From a virus: a stretch of DNA of 64,000 bases. Shown here one piece after another: positions 1-64,000 of this stretch. Every line of letters starts with the position of its first letter. Position 1 is the first letter of the stretch. Under the pieces are notes generated by a model. It had not been told where the DNA came from. It saw only the letters and a program-made list of their open reading frames with translations, and did not search any database. The position numbers and the translations under genes are program-made. Location of the stretch: positions 5,381-69,380 of IMG/VR virus record IMGVR_UViG_3300032291_002944. The stretch is one strand, 5' to 3'.

Positions 1-1044
1 TTCAGTTGATGATTGGTAATCTAATCTTTCGGTCGTGTTTGCAGAATATGTGTTTCTTGCTGTTGAACTAAATAAAATGTTCCATTTGTTTTTAACAACA
101 CCAAATGATAAATTACCGTTTAAGTTTGGAATGGATGAAAACTCTTCTGATTGAGGTGACCCTATTAATTTAGTATACGCTCTTCTATCACCCAATCCCG
201 CAATTCTATATGTGTTTGTTGATGGAAATGTTGTTGGGAAATGTATTGGGTCAACCAATTTAAAATCTTGTCCTGTTGACAATGAACCCCAGCTTCCTCC
301 TAAAGATACGTTAAAAAAATCTCCTGAAACTTCTTTTGTTGTTATTTGAACTAAACCACCTGCAAAATCACCTGGCAGATTTGCGGATGCTCCTTTGTTA
401 ATTATGATGTTATCAATTAGTGATGTAGGTATTATATCAAATGAGAATGCTCTTCTATCAGGTTCTGTTGATGGTAATTGTGTTTTGTTTAACAGGGCGG
501 AATTATATCTATCTGCCAAACCTCTAACTAATATAAACTTATCGTTTTGGATTGTTACACCACTAATTCTTTTGAGAGCATCTCCAACTGTTCTATCGGG
601 TGTTTTTTTAATTGACTCAATTGATAAACCATCAGCAACTATGTACGACGCTTTGAGTGTATTAATAAGTGCGGTTGATGTTTCTTTTTTTGATACTTGT
701 TTGACAACTACCTCTTTTAATTGAGTAGATTCTTCCTCTAATTTGAAGTCCAAATCATTTTTTTCTGAAGTAAAATAAACTTCTTTTTTTTCAAATGGTA
801 TATAACCAACTGAGGTAATTTTAACGGTGTAAGTAACATCAAGAATTACATTATTGACTTGAAAAATTCCTTTCTCATTTGCCGATGCTCCGTATCTATT
901 TGAAATTGAAATTAATTGAATTGTAGACCCAGGAAGAATTTCTCCTTTTTTGTCTTTTATCGTCCCACTAATGTTTGACGTTTTTATCTGTGAAAATCCC
1001 GTGATAGAAATCATCAAAGATAAGAGTAATAATAGTTTTTTCAT
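1..1044 (-). CDS. TonB-dependent outer-membrane receptor (SusC-like), 3' end runs off the window
   Basis: Not in the ORF track; translated by hand from ATG at 1044: MKKLLLLLSLMISITGFS-QIKTSNISGTIKDKKGEILPG (signal peptide with Gln at +1, carboxypeptidase-regulatory-like start), then plug-domain motifs PDRTVGDALKRISGVTIQNDKFILVRGLADRYNS, FSFDIIP and GDFAGG. Confidence 0.88.
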   Translation of the reverse strand, partial: MKKLLLLLSLMISITGFSQIKTSNISGTIKDKKGEILPGSTIQLISISNRYGASANEKGIFQVNNVILDVTYTVKITSVGYIPFEKKEVYFTSEKNDLDFKLEEESTQLKEVVVKQVSKKETSTALINTLKASYIVADGLSIESIKKTPDRTVGDALKRISGVTIQNDKFILVRGLADRYNSALLNKTQLPSTEPDRRAFSFDIIPTSLIDNIIINKGASANLPGDFAGGLVQITTKEVSGDFFNVSLGGSWGSLSTGQDFKLVDPIHFPTTFPSTNTYRIAGLGDRRAYTKLIGSPQSEEFSSIPNLNGNLSFGVVKNKWNILFSSTARNTYSANTTERLDYQSSTE

Positions 1045-4291: not shown

Positions 4292-7102
4292 TTAATTACA
4301 AAAGAATCCTCCTGTATTTGGGTCATAAGTATATGATGTCCAAAAGGGATTACTATATCCTCCACAACCACCCCTTCCAGTCCCAAAACAATATCCAAAT
4401 CTAAAATAATTTCCGTTCCCTGCTGTCATATATATTGGTGAATCTTCTAAACTACAAAAAGATATTTGTGTATTTTCAAACACCCATGCGTCTAATTCAA
4501 AAGGACCTGCTAAATTACACACTGTCCATTCAAATCTACTTCCTTGAGTACCTCCATAATATGTTGCAATATTACAATCGTAAGACTGACTAGTTAAGGT
4601 TAAAATCCCTCCATCTCTAGAATATGAGGCGACTTTACCTCTAAGTTGTATAGTGCTAGTATACCCATCCTGTACAAATGTGTAACATAGACCCACACTA
4701 GGAGCTGATGGGATAGGGTTAAACTGTATATTATAATATGTGTTAGGAATAGTTCTATTATAATTAAAACTTTGAAAATTTGGAACCCCTAAAGAGTCAC
4801 ATGTCGTGGTGTCTACTGATGTTACAATACTTGAAGAATTTACTGTGTATTTATTACCATTACCAATTACGTATGTACCACTAGGTGCAGAACCTGTTCC
4901 AAGTGTACTTCCTGTTTGAAGAAAATCACCAATACTAATTGGACCTGAAGACGAAGTAGATGTGATTGTAAAAATTAACTCAGTATAAGTGATAGGAATA
5001 TTGTAATCAAAACATGCTTGATTTCCTGTTGTTGCGGTAGTATATGAGAATGGAGTACGACTTTGTTGACCAATTATTTGCGGTATCCAAGTTACCTTAC
5101 CACTTGTACTAATCGTTGATGAACAATTTCTATATGATATTACATAATTCCCAAAAGGTAAATTATAGTTTCTGAAATCAAAGTCATTGTCATAATTTTG
5201 ACCAGTTTGATTAACTAATTCTCTATTTTGTAAATCGTAAACTATTAAATTAGCGACAGGACCATTAACAAATCTTAATTTACTAAATATACCCGTATAA
5301 TTACCATAAGTAGGATTTATTAAAATTGGTGAACATCCTCCAATTTGTGCTTCTAACGATTGAAATATTTTAGGTTCTGCAGGACCAAAACACACAGGAG
5401 TTTCTGTTGGCGTTGGTTGTGGTGGAGTTGCTGATGGAGAAGGTGGTATTAATTGTATAGTTGGTGTTGGAGTTCTAGTTGCTGTAGGTGTGGGACTAAT
5501 TATTCCAGCACATGTTTGAATATTGTAAATTTGACCACCACTTACATCATAAACATACGTACCGTCACTATAAGTTCCACTAGGAATTATTTCAGTATAA
5601 GAACAAGAGGTATATACATTATCATATAAAACAGGATTACCTGGATGATTATAGGCAAATATTAATGATGGTTCCCCTGTTGGTGTACAATACGCGTCGT
5701 TAAATACTGGATATACTGAAATTTGAGTGCAATTGTAAGGAGTCGTTGATGGTGTTGGTTGAGGTGTTGTTGATGATGGTGTTGGTGTAGGTGGAATACT
5801 ACAACTACCATTGAATGTGTAATAGCCATCACCATTAAATGCGTATACTCCATAACTATCAATAACACAAATATTTGTTATAACATCTCCAGCTTCAACG
5901 TATGTTGAAACAGGTTCATCATCATTTGTAGGGCATATAATATATTGAAATTGAGTTCCAGTTGTTCCACCATATAGGTCATATGACGAACAACTGTCAA
6001 AATCGTATTGAGTTGGCGTCGGTGATGGTGTAATACTTGCAGTTACAAAAGGAGTTGTTGTAGGTGTTGGTGTACAAGTAATAGCACTATTACACGGGTC
6101 TGTATATGTATCATTATATCTTGGTAGAATTGCGTTGTAGTTTTGAGTAATTTGAGTCTGTGTTAAAGCACTTGTAAAAACTTGAACTACGCCTATTTTA
6201 CCATCAAAATATTCCGTAGTATTTGTTAATCCGACTGTAAGATTAGATGTAACTGATGTACTTGGAGTTCCAGGAGTGTCCTGAACTTTTAAAATACCAT
6301 TAACATATATTTTTCTTGTTGTCCCATCCCAAGTTGCTACCGCATTATACCAAGTATTTGTGGTTATAGGTGAATCTGTAGTTGATAAATCGTTTCCCGA
6401 CCAATAATTTGTTAAGTTTCCACTTGTTAATCTAAATGCATTTACTTGATTTGTGGAACCATAATTACCATACCCTATTAAACCTTTATTCCCTAATGTA
6501 TTTGCGTTAAACCAAACATTTAAAGTATATGGTGTACTTCCTACTGGTATATTATTTACAGATGAGAATGTGATTGAATCGGCTCCATCAAAAACTAAAG
6601 TTCCTAAATTCGCAGAATTATACGTTGCACCATTTATTGTACCAGTATTTCCATTACCTGAAATATCGTACCAAATAGAATTAACTAAAGGGTAAGAAGC
6701 TGTATAACCTGCGTCCAATAACAACGATTGATTAGTGGTTACAATTGAAGGGTAGGCTTGATTTTCTATGAAAAGTCCTAAAGTTGCTGACCAAGTAATT
6801 GCTTCAGATAAAGTTGCGAATGGATTGTAACCTTCAGAAACCGCAATTTTATTTAAAGTTATTAATAACGATGTATCTGTTTTAGCAGATGTTGGAAAAC
6901 CTACTGGTACTGCATTTGATTGAAGTGTTTTACCTAAACTATAACTATCTCCAATTATAAAATATTGATTACATATCCCATAGTCAGTACACCATTGTAA
7001 TGACCCTTTATTAACACTATTGTTAACATCCATAGCAATTGTTCCAAATTGTATGGCGTTTGAGATTGGCGTCGATGGGTTATAAGCAATTAAATTTGGC
7101 AT
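4292..7102 (-). CDS. Large virion-type protein with LamG/concanavalin-like domain and Thr/Pro-rich linkers
   Basis: LDAG..SYP..WYDISGNGN..TWYNAVATWDG..KIYVNG..QITQNYNA LamG-like pattern, three TPTPT tracts separating small Cys-containing modules, and a late motif at 7115-7121. Confidence 0.75.
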   Translation of the reverse strand: MPNLIAYNPSTPISNAIQFGTIAMDVNNSVNKGSLQWCTDYGICNQYFIIGDSYSLGKTLQSNAVPVGFPTSAKTDTSLLITLNKIAVSEGYNPFATLSEAITWSATLGLFIENQAYPSIVTTNQSLLLDAGYTASYPLVNSIWYDISGNGNTGTINGATYNSANLGTLVFDGADSITFSSVNNIPVGSTPYTLNVWFNANTLGNKGLIGYGNYGSTNQVNAFRLTSGNLTNYWSGNDLSTTDSPITTNTWYNAVATWDGTTRKIYVNGILKVQDTPGTPSTSVTSNLTVGLTNTTEYFDGKIGVVQVFTSALTQTQITQNYNAILPRYNDTYTDPCNSAITCTPTPTTTPFVTASITPSPTPTQYDFDSCSSYDLYGGTTGTQFQYIICPTNDDEPVSTYVEAGDVITNICVIDSYGVYAFNGDGYYTFNGSCSIPPTPTPSSTTPQPTPSTTPYNCTQISVYPVFNDAYCTPTGEPSLIFAYNHPGNPVLYDNVYTSCSYTEIIPSGTYSDGTYVYDVSGGQIYNIQTCAGIISPTPTATRTPTPTIQLIPPSPSATPPQPTPTETPVCFGPAEPKIFQSLEAQIGGCSPILINPTYGNYTGIFSKLRFVNGPVANLIVYDLQNRELVNQTGQNYDNDFDFRNYNLPFGNYVISYRNCSSTISTSGKVTWIPQIIGQQSRTPFSYTTATTGNQACFDYNIPITYTELIFTITSTSSSGPISIGDFLQTGSTLGTGSAPSGTYVIGNGNKYTVNSSSIVTSVDTTTCDSLGVPNFQSFNYNRTIPNTYYNIQFNPIPSAPSVGLCYTFVQDGYTSTIQLRGKVASYSRDGGILTLTSQSYDCNIATYYGGTQGSRFEWTVCNLAGPFELDAWVFENTQISFCSLEDSPIYMTAGNGNYFRFGYCFGTGRGGCGGYSNPFWTSYTYDPNTGGFFCN

Positions 7103-7859: not shown

Positions 7860-9875
7860 CTATCTACCTTTTTTTTGAATTACGACATTTTCGTCAACAA
7901 CTTTTAGAACATAAGTTTTACCTTCAATTATATTCCCCATTAATACTTCATCCGATAACAAATCTTCAACTTTATCTTGAATTGCTCTTTTTAAAGGTCG
8001 TGCTCCATACAATTCATCATAACCAACTTTAGATAAGTAATCAACCAAAGTATCTTCGTAAGAGATTTTGTATTTCATTTCATTCAAACGAGAAACTAAC
8101 TTCTTAAGTTCAATTTCGGTGATTTTTTTAATATCATCGTTTGTTAAAGAGTTGAATACAATCGTATCATCAATACGGTTGATAAATTCAGGTGAGAAGA
8201 AATTTTTCATTTCTTTCATCAAGATTTCTTTTTTCATTTCTTCTTCACCATAAGAAGAACTTGAAAAACCAATACCTGTACCGAAGTCTTGTAACTTCTT
8301 CACACCTAAGTTTGAAGTCAAGATGATTAAGGTATTCTTGAAGTTAATCTTTCTACCTAGACTATCTGTTACGTGACCGTCATCCATAATTTGAAGTAAA
8401 ATTGTAAACACGTCTTTGTGTGCTTTTTCAACCTCATCAAATAGGATAACCGAATATGGTTTGTTCTTAACTTTCTCAGTTAATAATCCACCTTCTTCAT
8501 AACCAACATAGCCTGGAGGCGCTCCGACTAATTTGGATATGCTATGTTTCTCTTGGTACTCGGACATATCCACACGGATTAATGAGTCTTCACTACCAAA
8601 CATTTCTTTTGCCAATTCTTTAGCTAAGTGAGTTTTACCAACACCCGTAGAACCTAAAAATACAAATGAACCAATAGGACGATTTGGGTTGTTAATTCCA
8701 AGACGATTTCTTTTAATAGATTTTGCAATCTTAATAACAGCTGCGTCTTGGCCAATTACTTTACCAATTAATTCTTTATCCAAGTTCATTAAAGCCTTAG
8801 AATCATCTGCACTCATCTTATTGACAGGAATTTTAGTCATATTAGACACAACATCATAAACACTCTCAAGAGTAATTTTTTGTTTGTCTTTAGACATCTT
8901 CTCCTCAAACTTAGCCTTCTCTGACTCAAGTTTAGATAATAATTTCTTTTCCTTATCTCTAAGCTCTGCTGCTTGTTCGTAGTTTTGTTTCTTAACTACG
9001 TCCAATTTTTGATTCTTAATCTCAGCGGCTTGACGTTTAAGTTCTTCAATCGCTTCAGGAACTTTTAACTCAGTCTGCATTCTAGCCCCAACCTCATCCA
9101 AGATATCAAATGCTTTATCAGGAAACTCACGGTCAGTAATGTAACGGTCAGCAAGTTTCACACAGGTTTCAATAACCTCATCGCTATAAGATACCTTATG
9201 GAATTCTTCATACTTGTCACGAACGTTTTTCAAAATTTGAATTGTTTCAGCAACTGTTGATGGGTCTACAATGACTTTTTGAAATCTACGTTCTAACGCT
9301 CCGTCCTTCTCAATGTTCTTACGGAACTCATCTAATGTAGTTGCTCCAATACATTGAAGTTCACCACGGGATAAAGCTGGTTTAAAGATGTTTGAACCGT
9401 CCATAGAACCTGAAGAGTTACCTGAACCAACCAAAGTATGAATCTCATCAATGAAAACAATGATGTTAGGATTCGCGTGAAGTTCTTCAATAATAACTTT
9501 CATTCTTTCTTCAAATTGTCCACGGTACTTTGTACCAGCAACAACTGAAGTTAAATCCAAGTTAACAATTCGTTTGTCAATTAAATTACGAGGGCAATCC
9601 CCGTTAACAATTTTGATAGCCAAACCTTCAACCAAAGCGGTCTTACCACAACCAGGTTCTCCGATGATGATAGGGTTATTTTTCTTTCTACGAGATAAAA
9701 TTTGGGCAATTCTCAAAATTTCTCGTTCACGACCAATCACAGGGTCAAGTTTACCTTCAGCTGCTAATTTGTTTAAATCACGGCTAAAGTTATCCAAAAC
9801 AGGTGTGTTGCTTTCGGAAGAAGCTTTTTGTTTTTTACTCATCATTTTGTCGTCGTCGTCCATTAAGTCGTTCAT
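7860..9875 (-). CDS. clpC: ClpC-like AAA+ unfoldase lacking the N-terminal Clp-repeat domain
   Basis: Two AAA modules (GEPGCGKT/FIDEIH/KYRG and GSTGVGKT/FDEVEK/GYVG), a UVR-type M-domain (QNYEQAAELRD) and a ClpP-binding IGF loop (GTGIGFS). Only ~25 aa precede TPVLDNF. Confidence 0.92.
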   Translation of the reverse strand: MNDLMDDDDKMMSKKQKASSESNTPVLDNFSRDLNKLAAEGKLDPVIGREREILRIAQILSRRKKNNPIIIGEPGCGKTALVEGLAIKIVNGDCPRNLIDKRIVNLDLTSVVAGTKYRGQFEERMKVIIEELHANPNIIVFIDEIHTLVGSGNSSGSMDGSNIFKPALSRGELQCIGATTLDEFRKNIEKDGALERRFQKVIVDPSTVAETIQILKNVRDKYEEFHKVSYSDEVIETCVKLADRYITDREFPDKAFDILDEVGARMQTELKVPEAIEELKRQAAEIKNQKLDVVKKQNYEQAAELRDKEKKLLSKLESEKAKFEEKMSKDKQKITLESVYDVVSNMTKIPVNKMSADDSKALMNLDKELIGKVIGQDAAVIKIAKSIKRNRLGINNPNRPIGSFVFLGSTGVGKTHLAKELAKEMFGSEDSLIRVDMSEYQEKHSISKLVGAPPGYVGYEEGGLLTEKVKNKPYSVILFDEVEKAHKDVFTILLQIMDDGHVTDSLGRKINFKNTLIILTSNLGVKKLQDFGTGIGFSSSSYGEEEMKKEILMKEMKNFFSPEFINRIDDTIVFNSLTNDDIKKITEIELKKLVSRLNEMKYKISYEDTLVDYLSKVGYDELYGARPLKRAIQDKVEDLLSDEVLMGNIIEGKTYVLKVVDENVVIQKKGR

Positions 9876-10086: not shown

Positions 10087-10464
10087 ATGAAAAGAAATTA
10101 TAATGACGTGTTCAGATTCATTGATGAAATGTTTGGACAATTTGATTTTAACCCTACGGGTGGAGAGTGGAAAACTCAAACTAAAACATCTTCTGATGGG
10201 ACAAGTAAAATAACGACCCATTATTGGAGTAATGATAAATCAGATTCAAAAACTGAAAATGTCGAAAAATTGAAGGCTCAACTCGAATATGCGATTGAAA
10301 ATGAAGATTTTGAATTAGCTGTTGCTTTGAGAGATAAAATTAAAGGTCTTGAAACAAACCGAGAATTAATTACAAAACTTGAATTGGAACTGAAACAATC
10401 TATACAAGAACAAAATTTTGAAAGGTCTATTGAAATTAGAGACCAATTAAGAAAACTAAAGTAA
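10087..10464 (+). CDS. Tandem UVR (UvrB/UvrC motif) domain protein, candidate ClpC adaptor
   Basis: Two UVR repeats, LEYAIENEDFELAVALRDKI and LKQSIQEQNFERSIEIRDQL. Divergent from clpC. Confidence 0.8.
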   Translation: MKRNYNDVFRFIDEMFGQFDFNPTGGEWKTQTKTSSDGTSKITTHYWSNDKSDSKTENVEKLKAQLEYAIENEDFELAVALRDKIKGLETNRELITKLELELKQSIQEQNFERSIEIRDQLRKLK

Positions 10465-10508: not shown

Positions 10509-10847
10509 ATGAAACCATTTGAGAAATTTTTAAATGATAGTTTAGGAACAAAAGAATTACTTGAGATTTACCTTGAGTTAAGAAAACATTTTCAAGAACT
10601 AGGATTTAGTGAGGATAATTTAGTTGAACCTCCAACATATACTAATGAAATGTTTATGTTACAAAAAAGATTTCAAAGTACTTTAAAAGCTTTATTAAAT
10701 CAAGTTAATTCTTATGGTTTTAAAGTGGACAGAACGGAATTTGGAGAGTACATTCAACCACTATTAAATAAAATTAACGAATTAACACCACTAAGCGAAA
10801 ATGGGTATAACGAAGGAGGAAATCAAGGGGACGAAGATTTTGAATGA
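10509..10847 (+). CDS. Hypothetical protein
   Basis: 112 aa ORF with a late motif at 10498-10505. Confidence 0.6.
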   Translation: MKPFEKFLNDSLGTKELLEIYLELRKHFQELGFSEDNLVEPPTYTNEMFMLQKRFQSTLKALLNQVNSYGFKVDRTEFGEYIQPLLNKINELTPLSENGYNEGGNQGDEDFE

Positions 10848-11043
10848 AATTAAATCGTCAAACATCAAGAGAACTGAGTACGACACTGAAACAAAAAAGT
10901 TAGTAACTGAGTTCAATAATGGATTGAAATATGAGTACAGTGATGTACCTCATAGTATCTATACACAATTTAGAAAAGCCGAATCACAGGGTAAATTTTT
11001 CATTTCAGAAATATCAAAAAAATATTCATACAAAAAAGTATAG
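10801..11043 (+). CDS. KTSC domain protein
   Basis: KSSNIKRTEYD..LVTEFNNGLKYEYSDVP..YTQFRKAESQGKFF is the KTSC signature. Confidence 0.88.
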   Translation: MGITKEEIKGTKILNEIKSSNIKRTEYDTETKKLVTEFNNGLKYEYSDVPHSIYTQFRKAESQGKFFISEISKKYSYKKV

Positions 11044-11064
11044 TATTCCTACTATTTATAATGT

Positions 11065-11790
11065 ATGAGTAATTTCAAAAAAATTCTTGATAGTTTTTCT
11101 GTTAAAGACACTTTAAATCCAAAAGTGTGGGAAAATCCCGAAAATCCTGACAAATCGGTTATGATACCAAAAATCAGGGAAACACTTTTGCGTATTGCCG
11201 AAAAATTTATTGAGTATTTGGGAGAAGATGTTTTTGTTGAGGATATTGTTTTAACTGGTTCTTTAGCAAATTATAATTGGTCTGAATTTTCTGACTTTGA
11301 CTTACATGTTCTTGTTGATTTAAAACAATATGAAGATGATACGGATTTATATAAAGAATTATTTAATTTGAAAAAACAAGTATTCAACGATAAACATAAT
11401 ATCAGAATTTATGGATACGATGTTGAAGTATATTCTCAAGATGTTGAAGAGGAACACTATAGTTCAGGAGTTTATTCTGTAATGAATAATGAATGGGTTA
11501 GTGAACCAGAAAAATTTAAAAGTAATGTTGATAAGACAATTTTAGAAAAAAAGATTAAAAATTGGACAGAAAAAATAGATTCTGCAATTGAAGAAGAAAA
11601 AGATTTAGAAAAAATTAAAACTAAACTTAAAGATTATAGAAAATCTGGATTAGAAAAAGACGGTGAATTATCATATGAAAATTTAGTTTTTAAATTCTTA
11701 AGAAGGTCAGGACACATTCAAAAATTATTTGATACCGCTAATAAAGAGCTTGATAAAGAGTTGTCAATTGAAAGAACTATAACTGAATAA
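11065..11790 (+). CDS. Pol-beta superfamily nucleotidyltransferase
   Basis: LTGSLANYNWSEFSDFDLHV (GS + DxD) and a third acidic residue in YDVEVY. Confidence 0.8.
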   Translation: MSNFKKILDSFSVKDTLNPKVWENPENPDKSVMIPKIRETLLRIAEKFIEYLGEDVFVEDIVLTGSLANYNWSEFSDFDLHVLVDLKQYEDDTDLYKELFNLKKQVFNDKHNIRIYGYDVEVYSQDVEEEHYSSGVYSVMNNEWVSEPEKFKSNVDKTILEKKIKNWTEKIDSAIEEEKDLEKIKTKLKDYRKSGLEKDGELSYENLVFKFLRRSGHIQKLFDTANKELDKELSIERTITE

Positions 11791-18490: not shown

Positions 18491-18527
18491 CTATTTATAA
18501 TTTCAAGGTTTTAAGTAAAATTGTATT

Positions 18528-21816: not shown

Positions 21817-21857
21817 TAAAGATACTCTTTTGATATATTTATCTTAAAAAAGAATTA

Positions 21858-58799: not shown

Positions 58800-59267
58800 T
58801 TATAGTTTTGACATTATTTCATTTATTCTTTTTAGGCTTTCAGTAACAGCAACATCGTACTTGTCAGTTGTTTTTAAATGTTTTTGAGATGTTCTTACAT
58901 TTGTAAAATCTTTTTTCTCGTGAGGGTCCAAGAATTGATTTTGCATTCCTGTATTCATTTTGTTGGTTTTGGTCATCTTAATATAATCCCTCATTCGTCT
59001 CAACTCATTGTCAACCCAATTTTTAATTTCAACTCCTCCATTTAAAATAAATGGTAGTTCTTCTTCGTTTCCTTTGAAATTATCAAAAAAGTTTTTAATT
59101 CTTTTGAGTTGTTTATATGAAATAAATTTTTGATTTTGAAGTTCTTTATTTCTAAGGTAACCTTCAGTATCGGCGTCTGCTCCAACGGCTTTATTAAAAC
59201 ATATTTTCATATGTCTTCTTTTATCCGAAGGGAATTCAATTTCTTTATCGTATAAACTACTATTCAC
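58800..59267 (-). CDS. Hypothetical protein
   Basis: 155 aa ORF with ISYKQLKRIKNFF..NGG and a C-terminal VTESLKRINEIM. Confidence 0.65.
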   Translation of the reverse strand: MNSSLYDKEIEFPSDKRRHMKICFNKAVGADADTEGYLRNKELQNQKFISYKQLKRIKNFFDNFKGNEEELPFILNGGVEIKNWVDNELRRMRDYIKMTKTNKMNTGMQNQFLDPHEKKDFTNVRTSQKHLKTTDKYDVAVTESLKRINEIMSKL

Positions 59268-60093
59268 CTTTTTTTATAAGTTTAATTAAGTCTTCCTTTG
59301 AGAATCCATTTTTTTCAACATGATTCAAAAGAGATTTTAAATTTTTTCTAATTAATAACGGTAATTCGTCAATGTTTTTTGGGAGTTCTTTTTTTCCAAC
59401 TTCAGAATTGTCTGAATTTTTTTTACCCATCAAAATATCTTCAACAACTTTAATCATTTTTTGTTTTTGAATTTCAGAAAGAGTTGCTCTTGTTATAAAA
59501 TTCTTGTCGTGGTAATATTTTGATTTTTTATCTTTTTCACCTGAAGGGTCTTTACCTTGTTGTTTTGTTCTTTCTTTAGCATCATCTGGTTCTAAATTCA
59601 TTTTTTTAACCAAATATTTGTAAGTTTCAGGTCCATCCATATCTTCAGTTTCTTCATAACCAAATGCTCCTGATAAATCAATTTCATTTACTTCTTCTTC
59701 AACAGACTCACCATAATAAGTTCTATAACCACGAGAAATAGGGTCATTAGTAATTCTAGCAGCAGCGACAGTTTGGTCCATTGTCTTTTTTGGATGTAAC
59801 TTAGGGTCTAAAATTGGTATTTTTGAATTAGACAACGCACCATCCAAATTAACTAATTCTTCTAAATCTTTCTTAACTCCTTTAGTTGTTTTAATTTTTT
59901 TCTCTTTAGCAATTTTTTTAATGTGATTTTTCACTTTCTCTCCATCTTTTTTGGCGAAGTGAATAACCTCATCTTTTTTACGCGCTTCTGTCAAAGTTCC
60001 CTCTACAGAGAAATATAATGAGTATTTGTCTCCTTTGTCTCTAAGGAAAAAATAATATGGTGATGAGTAAAATTCTGAATCTGTTGAAATCAT
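59260..60093 (-). CDS. Hypothetical putative head protein
   Basis: 277 aa ORF with LTE/VNE/LSE motifs; late motif at 60109. Confidence 0.6.
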   Translation of the reverse strand: MISTDSEFYSSPYYFFLRDKGDKYSLYFSVEGTLTEARKKDEVIHFAKKDGEKVKNHIKKIAKEKKIKTTKGVKKDLEELVNLDGALSNSKIPILDPKLHPKKTMDQTVAAARITNDPISRGYRTYYGESVEEEVNEIDLSGAFGYEETEDMDGPETYKYLVKKMNLEPDDAKERTKQQGKDPSGEKDKKSKYYHDKNFITRATLSEIQKQKMIKVVEDILMGKKNSDNSEVGKKELPKNIDELPLLIRKNLKSLLNHVEKNGFSKEDLIKLIKKGE

Positions 60094-60108
60094 CTCTATT
60101 TTTTATTC

Positions 60109-60137
60109 TATAAATACTAGGATATAAGGTATTTATC
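60109..60137. promoter_or_regulatory. Back-to-back pair of putative late promoters
   Basis: TATAAATA at 60109-60116 (reads TATTTATA on the minus strand) and TATTTATC at 60130-60137 (+), each facing its own divergent gene. Confidence 0.7.
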
Positions 60138-60145
60138 AATAGTCT

Positions 60146-62347
60146 ATGGCATATCAAAATATAAATCAGTATAATTTTAGAAAATTTGGTCTAAAACCTG
60201 TTAATGAAATAACAGATATTTGTCTAGCGTCTGATGAAAAAGACTACGACCAAGAGGTAGTTTTTTCTCCTTTATTAATCGGAGAGGACGATGGTAACAG
60301 AATGCCTTTTAAATTTGACTTTAATAGTTCAGCCACAACTGTATGTCAAACATCCGCTTGTACTTTTGATAATAATACAATAGTTTCTGAAAATTATTGG
60401 AATCCATTATTTATTGACCCTAACTTTTGTCCTGTTGTTACAGAATTATGTGATGTTGGATTAACAGGAATTGATAATGGTTTAGTTTCTCAAATGTCAG
60501 GTGAGACTATTGAAATAACCACAGGTTTATATACAACTGAGTCGGACAAATTTAGTAGATACAAATATGATAGGAGAATGAAATTACATCCTATTACTGG
60601 TTTTACAACAACTGAAAATAGATTATGGGATGACAACTCCTATAACTACGACATGTATTATGCGACAGATGGTAATCCTGTTGGATATTTTTCAAGATTA
60701 GACGGAGGATTCTATCAAGGATTCTATAAGATTGCAGGATATGACTATCAAGTTTTTCCTGAAAGAGTTAATTTAGGATGGACAACTGAGTTCATGTTAA
60801 GATATAGATGGACAGGAGATACTTCAGTTGGTCTGAATGCAAGATACCCTAATAATAAAGGAACATTCTTTTATATGGGGGCAAGAGCCGAGAATAAGTT
60901 TTACCATTATGCAGATGGTGAACCAAAACAAGATACGGGTTATACAAGAGTTACATCAGGTTTAACTTGTATGCACACTTGTGGTTGTGCTAGCACTGCC
61001 AACACATCATCAGAATGTTTACAAGTGTATCAACCATCGGGTGGTACAATAACTCACTGTACTTGTGGTTGTCCTTGTGATTGTACAACAACTGCAAAAT
61101 ATCCTGAGAAAGACCCACTGTATGATGAGGTATCAAATGCGTTGTCATTAAGACTTAGTGGTGATACTGGTAACCCACGACTATGTGTTAAGACATATAG
61201 AATAACAGGTGGATGTGAATATAGTGGAGTTTGTTTGACTGGATTAACATATCAAACAGGAACTTCAGTTACTGAATGGTGTTCTACAAGAGGTATATTT
61301 GATGAATGTAGTGGAACGACTTATCCTAATGTTGAACACTGGGCTCAGATTGACGCAGTATTTCAAAGATATGAATGGTTGGATACTTGTGACTTATACG
61401 ATAAAGGTGGGTTGGGTCTACTTGTCAAAGATACATATTTTGCAACAATTGAAGATAGAAGTGTTACTTTAATTGAACCACCGTTAACTCACGAACAACC
61501 GTATGACCCAGCAAGTACTGAAGTTGTTACGTTTAACGATATGTGGACGGTAGAACAAAAGTACAGATTAGGTACTCTTAAGTTCTATGTTAACGGTAAA
61601 TTGTTTATGGTTGCGGAAAACTTTGAAGAAATTATTCCGAGATTATTAAATGTTGAAAAAGAAAAACAAATAGGTGTCGGTTATAACATTTCAATTGGAG
61701 GAGGTACTCAAGGTCTTCATGACAACTTAACATTCTCAGGAGGGTGTCCTGCTGAGTTAAGTGGACTTACTTACCAACAAGACCCTGAATCTTTAACAAC
61801 TTATGACTTAGACCATACAATATATTCAGGTCTTACAACTCAAATTAAATTAGAAGAATATTTTGGGGGTAGTATGATTGGTGACATCAGTGCATTTAGA
61901 ATGTATACTGAGCCATTGAATGCCTCTCAAATTAGACATAATTTTAAAATTCAAAAGAGTAAGTATAATTTACTTGACCCTAATTGTATTAATTGTAGAA
62001 TTACAATTCCAAATAACGATTTGTCATACGTTTCAGTCCCTTGTCCGTCACTAACATACGAATTAATTCCAGTAGGAGACTTAATGTATAATAATATTCC
62101 ATTAAGTAATTTAGAAAGTTTAGATATACCTATTGGTGAATTATTATATAATATTATCCCATCAAATAATTTAGAAAGTTTAGACATTCCTATTGGAGAC
62201 TTAATCTATGATAATATTCCATCAAACAATCTAGAAAGTTTAGATATTCCTATTGGAGACTTATTATATAATACTATTCCATCAAATAATTTAGAAAATT
62301 TAGATATACCTAATGGAGACTTATTTTATACAATAATTCAAAATTAA
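60146..62347 (+). CDS. Virion structural protein with LamG-like features, Cys-rich insert and C-terminal repeats
   Basis: GTLKFYVNGKL, ISIGGGTQGL and GDISAFRMYTEPL motifs, a CTCGCPCDC cluster, and 20-aa repeats at the C-terminus. Confidence 0.7.
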   Translation: MAYQNINQYNFRKFGLKPVNEITDICLASDEKDYDQEVVFSPLLIGEDDGNRMPFKFDFNSSATTVCQTSACTFDNNTIVSENYWNPLFIDPNFCPVVTELCDVGLTGIDNGLVSQMSGETIEITTGLYTTESDKFSRYKYDRRMKLHPITGFTTTENRLWDDNSYNYDMYYATDGNPVGYFSRLDGGFYQGFYKIAGYDYQVFPERVNLGWTTEFMLRYRWTGDTSVGLNARYPNNKGTFFYMGARAENKFYHYADGEPKQDTGYTRVTSGLTCMHTCGCASTANTSSECLQVYQPSGGTITHCTCGCPCDCTTTAKYPEKDPLYDEVSNALSLRLSGDTGNPRLCVKTYRITGGCEYSGVCLTGLTYQTGTSVTEWCSTRGIFDECSGTTYPNVEHWAQIDAVFQRYEWLDTCDLYDKGGLGLLVKDTYFATIEDRSVTLIEPPLTHEQPYDPASTEVVTFNDMWTVEQKYRLGTLKFYVNGKLFMVAENFEEIIPRLLNVEKEKQIGVGYNISIGGGTQGLHDNLTFSGGCPAELSGLTYQQDPESLTTYDLDHTIYSGLTTQIKLEEYFGGSMIGDISAFRMYTEPLNASQIRHNFKIQKSKYNLLDPNCINCRITIPNNDLSYVSVPCPSLTYELIPVGDLMYNNIPLSNLESLDIPIGELLYNIIPSNNLESLDIPIGDLIYDNIPSNNLESLDIPIGDLLYNTIPSNNLENLDIPNGDLFYTIIQN
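62066..62340 (+). repeat. 60-bp tandem repeat (~4.5 copies, 30-bp sub-period), in frame
   Basis: Lines starting at 62101, 62161, 62221 and 62281 align in register; unit peptide IPIGDLLYNIIPSNNLESLD. Confidence 0.92.
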
Positions 62348-62379
62348 TAAAATAAAGATATATTTATAAATAAAAAATT

Positions 62380-63459
62380 ATGTCAACAATAGAAGGAGTT
62401 AGAATCACAAGTAACAGTTTAATAGGAAAAACATCAAATCCTACTGTTTTTAGACCAGTAACTGGAGGAACAATTAGTTTAGGTTCGCAAATAGTTCCAT
62501 TTAATTATTATTCAGAATATCCATATGGAGAATATGATTTATTTATTACAGAATATCAAACAGATTATACTATAACAGTACCCGAACCAGCGCCAGCCCA
62601 ATCAGCATATACTGAAACCGTTAATTTAACATTCACAGGTTCTGTTTTATCTAGTTTTTGGGGTTCGTATACTACTGGATTTATGCAATCATTAGGGTTT
62701 GCTCCTGAAGATATTGTATATGCCGAAGGAATTTGTTCTGATGACGTTGATGCACCAATAGTACAAGGAGTTAGTAATATCGGACAATTTCCGACATCGG
62801 CAAACTCTCTTCTTGGCCCATTTATGTCAGGAGGTTTGGCTGGTTATCCATTTGTTGGCCAAGTTGGTTTGGGCGCGTGGGCAAGTCATATAACAACAGG
62901 TTCAACAATTTCTGGAGGAACATTATTTATTTCAAGTACACCACATATTGGAATTACTCTTGATGGTGATGTAGGTTACATCTATCGTAAAGGTAATGTT
63001 AGTGGAACTACTTTGTCCTCAACTTGCGGTGCGGTTGCAGGGGCGGTTGCTCAAGTTATTGCAACAGGAGCAACACAACCAAATTTTTCATCTTGGTCAG
63101 GAACTGGAGATTATGAATTTTATTATCTTCAAAATATTTTATGGCCTGAAAGAGCAACTCTATCGGCAATGACATATGGGGATAGTATGGCATATGCCAC
63201 AAGAGTTATTAGAAATAGTGCTAATCAATTTTTATTTGATTACTTACCAGCGGCGGTTACAGGAGGAACATTATCCGCTTTAGGATATGTTAGTGAAAAT
63301 CCAGTGTACTTGTGTAATGGTATTTTTATAAATACGGATTATGGATATGAATCTTATGTTCAAGTTGATGGGTTTTCCGCTTGGACATGGAACAATATAA
63401 CGTCTGCAGGTACTTGGACTGATTTAACTTCTGATTATCTTTCAGGATTATTAAATTAA
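62380..63459 (+). CDS. LCIB/theta-type carbonic anhydrase-like domain fused to an N-terminal virion-type module
   Basis: GICSDD (C119, D121), GPFMSGGLAGYPFVG, ASH, PHIGI (H189), GDVG..YRKG, TCGA (C216) and GIFIN match the LCIB/C family motif order. Confidence 0.8.
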   Translation: MSTIEGVRITSNSLIGKTSNPTVFRPVTGGTISLGSQIVPFNYYSEYPYGEYDLFITEYQTDYTITVPEPAPAQSAYTETVNLTFTGSVLSSFWGSYTTGFMQSLGFAPEDIVYAEGICSDDVDAPIVQGVSNIGQFPTSANSLLGPFMSGGLAGYPFVGQVGLGAWASHITTGSTISGGTLFISSTPHIGITLDGDVGYIYRKGNVSGTTLSSTCGAVAGAVAQVIATGATQPNFSSWSGTGDYEFYYLQNILWPERATLSAMTYGDSMAYATRVIRNSANQFLFDYLPAAVTGGTLSALGYVSENPVYLCNGIFINTDYGYESYVQVDGFSAWTWNNITSAGTWTDLTSDYLSGLLN

Positions 63460-63501
63460 TATTATACCATAAATTGTAATTATTTTAGAATAACAAAATA
63501 T

Positions 63502-63537
63502 AATACCGTACAGTAATCTTATTGTACGGTATTTTTA
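63502..63537 (+). terminator. Intrinsic terminator
   Basis: AATACCGTACA...TGTACGGTATT hairpin followed by a T-tract. Confidence 0.75.
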
Positions 63538-63603
63538 TTTAACCGTTTTTTTTAGTATAGATTTGTTATCAACAATAATATAAAATTTTGAGTATTTATT
63601 AAT

Positions 63604-64000
63604 ATGGCAGATTGTGGTGTATTAATTTCAAGTGTAAATTTAAGCGGGTTAACAACTGAAGTTACTTTCTTTCCTGAAACAGGAGGAACGGTTAATTTAG
63701 GTAATCAAGTAATACCATTTACGTATTATTCAAGTTATTATTATGGAACATATAGTTGTTATGTACCAACTTATAACCACACATATGATTTGGTAATTTT
63801 AGGGCCAACACCAACTCCAACGGTAACAACAACTTCAACGCCAACTAATACTGTAACACCAACAAATACTCAAACGTCCACAATAACACCAACTCAAACA
63901 AATACTGGTACGCCAACAAGTACACCAACTCAAACACCTTCAGTTACTATAGGTATAACACCAACTCAAACGCCAAGTAACACTCAAACACCATCAAATA
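63604..64000 (+). CDS. Thr/Pro-rich virion-type protein, runs off the window
   Basis: Not in the ORF track; hand translation gives MADCGVLISSVNLSGLTTEVTFFPETGGTVNLGNQVIPFTYYSSYYYGTYSCYVPTYNHTYDLVILGPTPTPTV... Late motif at 63593. Confidence 0.8.
   Translation, partial: MADCGVLISSVNLSGLTTEVTFFPETGGTVNLGNQVIPFTYYSSYYYGTYSCYVPTYNHTYDLVILGPTPTPTVTTTSTPTNTVTPTNTQTSTITPTQTNTGTPTSTPTQTPSVTIGITPTQTPSNTQTPSN

Follow-up and report, generated by a model that had tools for sequence, protein, structure and literature searches.

A giant freshwater phage gene that joins an LCIB-type carbonic anhydrase domain to a shared N-terminal handle

The DNA analyzed here, hereafter the window, is a 64,000-nucleotide (nt) stretch that forms the right 64 kb of one 69,380-bp virus record (IMG/VR IMGVR_UViG_3300032291_002944, record positions 5,381 to 69,380). 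Near its right end, an open reading frame (ORF) of 359 amino acids (aa), called on the + strand at 62380-63459, joins an N-terminal module of about 70 residues, which we call the handle, to a C-terminal domain of the LCIB/theta family of carbonic anhydrases (CAs). LCIB/theta CAs are known from algal CO2-concentrating mechanisms, and to our knowledge their bacterial relatives have barely been studied. Full-length relatives of the fusion protein are numerous (at least 120 listed), and 119 of the 120 relatives listed are 46-93% identical to it over at least 98% of its length. The protein contains no signal-like or membrane-spanning hydrophobic stretch (maximum 19-residue Kyte-Doolittle mean 1.3), in line with the missing signal peptide noted in an earlier interpretation made from the letters alone (hereafter the sequence-only reading).

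Family, fold and active site of the C-terminal domain

Membership of the phage gene in the LCIB/theta family is secure. The protein matches the Pfam family LCIB_C_CA (PF18599) with 99.8 bits (cut-off 25, E 1.7e-28) over aa 102-332, covering positions 15-219 of the 223 in the profile, and at E <= 1 it matches no other Pfam family, including that of the canonical beta-CAs (PF00484). PHROGs and NCBIfam hold no family for this protein or for its neighbours. When solved structures were searched by sequence, LCIB proteins alone were returned, led by PDB entry 6kfs and by PtLCIB4 of Phaeodactylum tricornutum, both with the single sequence (E 1.6e-16 and 7.9e-11, respectively) and with a family profile (E 1.1e-29 and 7e-28).

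The predicted structure leads to the same family. An AlphaFold2 model of the full-length protein, built from 67 aligned relatives, reached a mean predicted local distance difference test score (pLDDT) of 86.3 and a predicted template modelling score of 0.78. Superposed with VIA-align, residues 74-353 of this model fit 6kfs with a Z score of 27.7 (root-mean-square deviation, rmsd, 2.1 A over 244 of 248 residues, 24% identity), PtLCIB4 with 27.1 (2.2 A, 239 residues) and the Chlamydomonas protein CrLCIB with 21.2 (2.9 A, 220 residues), whereas the top-ranked canonical beta-CAs stayed at Z <= 12.7 (rmsd 3.3-3.7 A over 155-166 residues); Foldseek gave target-normalised template modelling scores of 0.85-0.86 against LCIB structures. 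The site motifs of canonical beta-CAs, CxDxR and HxxC, do not occur with their usual spacing, as the phage protein reads C119-S-D121-D-V and places 27 residues between H189 and C216. The profile match and the superposition both uphold the sequence-only reading, which had assigned this family from its motif series.

That reading had also named C119, H189 and C216 as putative zinc ligands, together with D121, and all four residues are indeed present. In a profile alignment the three ligands fall on the zinc ligands C46, H102 and C126 of PtLCIB4, and the surrounding motifs correspond one by one: CsDD in the phage to CSDE in PtLCIB4 (C46, D48), asHv to agHI (H88), tpHiG to gsHVG (H102), lRrG to aRRG (R116), and tCG to cCG (C126). 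We counted the PtLCIB4 numbers ourselves along the alignment, taking the S47R and H88A mutant entries as fixed points. The non-ligand site residues D121, H170 and R203, which include the equivalents of His88 and Arg116, are thus in place as well.

These residues are also strongly conserved. Each of the 121 full-length relatives has C119, D121, H189, C216 and R203, and at least 98% of them keep H170; all six are invariant in 67/67 rows that include proteins with other N-termini, and again in 74/74 rows, down to ~25% identity, of a set to which 25 bacterial homologues and 22 distant representatives were added. The ratio of non-synonymous to synonymous changes (dN/dS) for the domain is low (0.117 against the homologous locus L002, 0.108 against L004, and 0.16-0.18 against L007-L009), and the domain is under purifying selection. 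One position departs from the algal motif CSDEVxRP, the arginine of which is Ala or Gly in the phage family (Ala125 here). We do not take this as a sign of lost function, because the same position varies among bacterial homologues (A, G, H, R, S or N).

According to a review (PMC5876011), CrLCIB and its relative LCIC are inactive as CAs in vitro, and His162 and Arg194, residues important for activity, are disordered in CrLCIB. The existence of an H88A mutant entry for PtLCIB4 also points to the importance of the His. Judging from the alignment, His162 and Arg194 are probably the equivalents of H170 and R203. Because the non-ligand site residues have been conserved under strong selection, we think that the phage domain probably is an active zinc enzyme, with appreciable room for doubt.

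Cellular homologues are distant. In a search of one genome per prokaryote species, the nearest were 25-35% identical and came mostly from Bacteroidota, with others from Balneolaceae, Planctomycetota and Chloroflexota, the exception being a 1.5-kb scrap of a metagenome-assembled genome with 47% identity. The bacterial homologues are single-domain proteins of 218-284 aa, for which NCBIfam has no model. A quick maximum-likelihood tree grouped all 27 phage-type or metagenomic rows and the scrap in one clade (SH-aLRT, the Shimodaira-Hasegawa-like approximate likelihood ratio test, 100), on a branch of length 1.43, and residues such as D122, N318 and D320 are invariant in, and specific to, the phage clade.

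The bacterial branch looks like a working CA, because in 47 of 80 loci (L015-L094, mostly Bacteroidota) the gene immediately before the LCIB homologue, on the same strand, encodes phosphoenolpyruvate (PEP) carboxylase, a bicarbonate user; this enzyme is absent in 27, and 6 have too little flank. The pair looks like a bicarbonate-supply operon, and locus L053 may serve as an example, with PEP carboxylase at L053:2203-4968 and the LCIB homologue at L053:4995-5690. This linkage is a direct clue to the role of bacterial LCIB proteins.

A shared handle in a slot of variable cargo

In the full-length model the handle forms six beta strands (residues 5-9, 22-24, 31-33, 41-45, 50-56 and 61-67), with pLDDT values of 71-92 over blocks of 10 residues, and it is probably a small all-beta, Ig-like domain; its matches in BFVD were weak, to Big-1 and CarboxypepD_reg-like domains. 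Residues 6-78 match the next ORF (63604-63999) with 42% identity over 73 aa (E 5e-18), so that the ~70-aa module that had been described as common to the LCIB gene and the Thr/Pro-rich gene behind it is real; no further ORF in the window matches the handle. The handle evolves faster (dN/dS 0.12-0.65) than the LCIB domain, and in L004 it has been swapped (dN 0.31 vs. 0.06 for the domain).

The sharing extends far beyond these two genes. An exhaustive search of 1.84 billion representatives matched 650 proteins at E <= 0.001, and within that search handle and LCIB domain occur together in only two representatives (P0025 and P0121), while the LCIB domain is also found behind other N-termini and the handle at the head of several short ORFs, of unrelated 681-785-aa proteins (P0218, P0227, P0253 and P0260), of a protein with a Thr/Pro linker and a LamG domain (P0263), and of a collagen-like protein (P0230). 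In IMG/VR we considered the best 80 of 163 handle-encoding stretches, a choice that favours LCIB-type handles. Their handle ORFs comprised 43 with LCIB, 20 rich in Thr/Pro, 12 other long ones (eight from a ~680-700-aa family and four with 30-33% Thr+Pro) and 5 short ones.

The LCIB gene follows a 733-aa gene and a divergently transcribed 277-aa gene (Table 1), and the order (-)277 aa, (+)733 aa, (+)LCIB is kept in L002, L007, L008 and L009. A homologue of the 733-aa protein was recognised in 25 of 79 handle loci, and in all 25 a handle gene lies at most four genes downstream of it; the remaining 54 loci have no labelled homologue, partly through too little flank and partly since the best match went to the L002 orthologue. 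The cargo found in this slot differs between phages, being LCIB, Thr/Pro-rich ORFs of 366-927 aa, a 683-aa type or a 393-aa type, and one slot locus holds three handle genes. The 733-aa homologues and slot neighbours further include LamG domains (E 8e-33), collagen repeats (E 4e-30) and a papain-like domain (26.7 bits), and the L172 homologue of the 733-aa protein has two LamG stretches. Overall, the handle is common to LamG-linked, collagen-like and Thr/Pro-rich proteins and occupies a slot of variable cargo, the pattern looked for in a docking domain.

Table 1. Features at and around the LCIB gene (window coordinates, or locus coordinates where a locus is named)
Feature	Location	Strand	Remarks
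Whole gene, handle and LCIB-type carbonic anhydrase domain	62380..63459	+	359 aa
N-terminal handle, aa 1-70	62380..62589	+	six beta strands in model
Pro-rich linker VPEPAPAQ, aa 67-74	62578..62601	+	from sequence; matching region of relatives also Pro-rich
LCIB/theta-CA domain, aa 74-354	62599..63441	+	site residues C119, D121, H170, H189, R203, C216
Promoter-like TATTTAT(A)	62361..62368	+	12 nt before ATG; overlaps TATAAATA at 62365-62372
Intrinsic-terminator-like hairpin	63502..63533	+	14-pair stem, 4-nt loop, then TTTATTT
Next gene, handle and Thr/Pro-rich linker	63604..63999	+	61% Thr+Pro after aa 70; cut by contig end
733-aa upstream neighbour	60146..62347	+	conserved slot marker; C-terminal tandem repeats; possibly LamG-like
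277-aa gene, left slot boundary	59260..60093	-	divergently transcribed; conserved beside 733-aa homologue; TATTTAT upstream
Tandem handle-less LCIB genes, 401 and 285 aa	L013:9602-10804 and 10811-11665		also in L014

The 733-aa protein itself matched nothing in Pfam, PHROGs or INPHARED, and a PDB sequence search returned nothing meaningful; an Atlas comparison placed it near viral LamG clusters (0.91-0.92), which we treat as a lead only. The 277-aa gene had no family match. The end of the 733-aa protein (window 61900-62340) consists of tandem ~20-aa units (…LESLDIPIGDLLYN…). A 127-aa protein of L001 and L002 (L002:9989-10369) joins the handle to a repeat of this type (59% identity over 73 aa), which again points to module shuffling in the slot. 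Downstream of the slot, relatives encode small Thr/Pro-rich proteins, a LamG protein, several glycosyltransferases and DNA polymerase B.

The sequence-only reading had placed a late motif upstream of the gene, and this claim holds in part. The T4-type motif TATAAATA was rejected as a late signal, as the window contains 17 copies against 13.2 expected, which is no enrichment, and 16 of 100 shuffles also reach 17. The element TATTTAT, a copy of which lies at 62361-62367, does recur: 18 sense copies, against 0.76 expected if evenly spread, lie within 40 nt upstream of 17 of the 65 genes (5 copies are antisense), at distances of 4-29 nt (e.g., 18492-18499, 21830-21836 and 62361-62367). The genes concerned include those for the portal, the prohead protease, a 936-aa LamG structural protein, the 733-aa protein, the LCIB protein and the next handle protein (4 nt upstream), and among distinct upstream regions of relatives TATTTAT occurs within 60 nt of 13 of 25 LCIB-type and 26 of 30 other handle genes. 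Late expression of the LCIB gene is one possible reading of this distribution. By eye, some other genes (1336-1719 and 10087-10464) are preceded by the Bacteroidota-type TAnnTTTG, which suggests that the phage may use two promoter classes. The terminator ascribed to the gene is there too, in the form of the hairpin at 63502-63533; it was the sole terminator-like site in 59900-64000, where shuffles gave a mean of 1.4.

Six [S/T]GxT motifs had likewise been reported for the protein. All six exist (aa 28, 173, 178, 208, 229 and 294), more than chance would give (1.0 +/- 0.95 in composition shuffles, with a fraction of 0.0005 of 2000 reaching six). The motif at aa 28, inside the handle, is kept in 98 of 121 relatives and the other five in 7-50 of 121, and with five of six not conserved we rejected [S/T]GxT as a functional motif.

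The phage and its probable host

The record is part of a T4-like giant freshwater phage of ~315-330 kb: CheckV estimates it as 22% complete, which corresponds to a genome of ~315 kb, identical copies of one protein of the record lie on a 329,958-bp contig, and T4-type terminase, portal, prohead protease and Gp23-like capsid genes are found at ~16.7-26.6 kb. The nearest deposited capsids, 42-46% identical, are those of Microcystis phage Mel-JY01, Flavobacterium phage immuto and uncultured huge phages. Pieces nearly identical to the LCIB gene also turned up in metagenome runs that other studies had made from lakes and fresh water (X6, X7).

The host is probably an Aquirufa-like member of the Bacteroidota, judging from two genes at the left end that look like host-derived surface genes. 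One encodes an 833-aa TonB-dependent receptor with a signal peptide (window 1-1044, - strand, continuing to G000:C1:3926-6424), which matches receptors of Aquirufa (Bacteroidota, Cytophagales) and Pseudarcicella, its nearest cellular relatives, along its entire length at 69-70% identity; the other, at the left end of the record (G000:C1:2727-3926), encodes a 400-aa lipoprotein, also with a signal peptide. We take hosts of the Aquirufa/Pseudarcicella type to be heterotrophic. A CO2-concentrating role in a phototrophic host is accordingly unlikely, and the sensing of phycospheres that the sequence-only reading had considered fits such a host poorly.

The left end also carries tRNA-Glu(UUC) (1258-1334, - strand) and a tmRNA (1784-2190, - strand) with a tag peptide ending in VTVA. 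A prophage or chimeric contig, which this tmRNA, the tRNA and the receptor could suggest, was rejected, as the GC content is phage-like, small phage-like ORFs continue beyond, and copies of the receptor occur on contigs of up to 330 kb. Other genes of the window include a ClpB/ClpA-like double AAA+ ATPase (671 aa, 7860-9875, - strand) and a small protein with two UVR motifs (10087-10464, + strand). A sugar-nucleotide and glycosyltransferase block of ~22 kb (window ~35000-57400, - strand) encodes an epimerase, a DegT aminotransferase, UDP-glucose dehydrogenase, FkbM methyltransferases and glycosyltransferases of families GT2, GT4, GT10 and GT11, along with NAD synthase, PhoH and dUTPase. The glycan genes and the Thr/Pro-rich handle proteins, taken together, suggest that the phage may glycosylate proteins of its own.

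Possible roles and comparison with known systems

Our tentative reading is that the LCIB protein is a functional zinc enzyme carried by an interchangeable docking handle and is probably attached to the virus particle; we put the chances of this reading as a whole a little below even. The C-terminal ~280 residues would bind zinc, may form a dimer, and would interconvert CO2 and bicarbonate. Because one handle precedes many cargos in a fixed slot, with the cargo differing between phages, the most likely task of the handle is to attach its cargo to a shared partner, which would probably be part of the particle. Particle attachment is plausible because of the other cargos of the handle, the variable slot and the promoter-like motif common to this gene and those for the portal and the protease; taken by itself, we regard it as close to a coin toss. 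The phage would then carry a CA on its surface where its relatives carry adhesin-like modules. It is more doubtful that this Bacteroidota phage displays a working CA on its particle and thereby alters the pH or the bicarbonate/CO2 of the boundary layer of the host cell or matrix, a change that might aid adsorption, penetration or triggering.

Several observations weigh against particle attachment or against catalysis. At 62.4 kb the gene lies outside the head block (~11-27 kb) and in no structural module; it sits among glycosyltransferase and replication genes, and in relatives it has glycosyltransferase blocks on one side and the DNA polymerase on the other. Of the 25 LCIB-type handle genes, 12 have no TATTTAT upstream, and the motif also precedes genes of unknown class. 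The fold of the handle could not be identified, as it reached a pLDDT of 58 when modelled alone and an Atlas search with it gave no usable hit. One low-depth 333-nt contig of a freshwater RNA library that lies inside the LCIB gene, a weak hint of transcription, may be DNA carry-over, and the lack of RNA cover elsewhere in the stretch carries no weight. A tblastn search of 50,697 deposited phage records with the LCIB protein found no match, and thus no cultured relative. The phage clade stands on its long branch away from all other cellular rows of the quick tree, and the inactive CrLCIB and LCIC share the same site architecture (PMC5876011), so that intact residues are no proof of catalysis. 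Finally, G002, a complete phage of 202,880 bp with terminal repeats and the sole complete related genome, has two tandem LCIB genes that lack the handle, in a setting of nucleotide-metabolism and lysis genes; the enzyme is therefore also kept without it. This pair (L013) adjoins HNH, dCMP deaminase, RNA ligase and lysozyme genes.

These handle-less genes in a ~203-kb phage would suit an enzyme that works in the cytoplasm of the infected cell, the handle serving only for oligomerisation or localisation. Such an auxiliary enzyme could speed up CO2/bicarbonate exchange for host carboxylations (PEP carboxylase anaplerosis, nucleotide or lipid synthesis) or buffer pH in a large burst. The apparent operon of bacterial homologues with PEP carboxylase in 47 of 80 loci, the missing signal peptide and a gene position among metabolic and glycan genes rather than head genes all favour it, as does a precedent: viral CAs of the alpha, beta and gamma classes, one setting being a giant virus, are described as auxiliary genes in two sources (bioRxiv 10.64898/2026.01.21.700432; PMC13037468). 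We nevertheless consider this role unlikely. The same handle heads Thr/Pro-rich stalks, LamG proteins and collagen-like proteins, which are types of surface rather than cytoplasmic protein, and one would not expect stalk, LamG and collagen cargos to take turns with a metabolic gene at one slot. Moreover, neither PEP carboxylase nor ATP-grasp carboxylase occurs in any of five related phage records (four of them fragments), although host enzymes could serve.

An improbable alternative is that the LCIB fold has become a non-catalytic module, with a structural zinc, used as an oligomeric decoration or a binding domain. The in vitro inactivity of the Chlamydomonas proteins (PMC5876011), the long branch of the phage clade and the resemblance of other slot cargos to binding modules (LamG, lectin-like, collagen) would fit this, yet D121, H170 and R203 are as invariant as the ligands across the 74 rows, a purely structural zinc site has no need of them, and dN/dS is low over the whole domain.

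An enzyme shifted to another small substrate is more improbable still: carbonyl sulfide and carbon disulfide hydrolases have the beta-CA fold too, and both the branch of 1.43 to all cellular homologues and the clade-specific residues D122, N318 and D320 could be read this way, but no known site position has changed and the window offers no sulfur-metabolism context.

Whichever role applies, the protein belongs to a large, selected and virus-specific LCIB clade, with more than 120 full-length relatives and the fusion in 43 loci (best 80 of 163). BFVD yielded 0 matches to the phage LCIB protein at E <= 0.001, a handle-bearing 714-aa protein and the 733-aa neighbour also lacked any tblastn match in the 50,697 phage records, and in the literature searched we found no published phage LCIB-type enzyme, although supplementary files could hold such annotations. 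The remark of the sequence-only reading that it knew of no such enzyme described as a phage particle component therefore stands for these sources.

In this uncultured group of giant freshwater phages, the handle has the look of a general plug-in system for cargo associated with the particle, and it could serve phage display. An enzyme on the particle would be a new kind of virion function, and a displayed, working CA would be without precedent both as a CO2-handling enzyme borne on a particle and as a theta-type CA outside cells; an intracellular enzyme would add a new CA class to viral auxiliary metabolism.

Among characterized proteins, the best structural and sequence match is 6kfs, a 'CCM related protein' with an LCIB_C_CA domain, which is single-domain, unlike the phage protein; we found no paper naming 6KFS, 9VZJ or 9W00. 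PtLCIB4 and PtLCIB3 (PDB 5b5y), which Jin and co-workers reportedly found in 2016 to be active CAs, share the Pfam family, the fold and the Cys-His-Cys site with the Asp, His88 and Arg116 equivalents. The phage protein differs from PtLCIB4 in overall sequence (~23% identity), in the Ala that replaces the Arg of CSDEVxRP and in about three extra residues before the last Cys, and it carries an N-terminal handle and comes from a phage of a probable heterotroph, whereas PtLCIB4 and PtLCIB3 are plastid proteins. Canonical beta-CAs (PF00484; E. coli CynT2/Can and pea CA) have the core fold and the Cys/His/Cys zinc chemistry in common with it (Z 10-12.7), with a different site spacing and a much weaker structural match than LCIB proteins. 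CrLCIB and CrLCIC (PDB 5k5w and 5b5x) agree with the phage protein in fold (Z 21.2 and 20.4) and in the site residues, are more distant in sequence, and form a plastid complex around the pyrenoid (PMC5876011). The Bacteroidota homologues share the domain and the catalytic set, and their phylum is also that of the probable host, but they are 25-35% identical, single-domain, a branch of 1.43 apart and set in a metabolic context.

The overall design has parallels elsewhere. T5 pb10 and T4 Hoc are modular phage decoration proteins in which the anchor is conserved and the outward domain varies, and the phage protein would follow the same logic, a small conserved docking domain with exchangeable outward cargo, the likeness seen being one of design. 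A fibril protein of Mimivirus has an enzyme fold, that of GMC oxidoreductases, and would offer the parallel of an enzyme fold on the surface of a particle whose virus encodes many glycosyltransferases.

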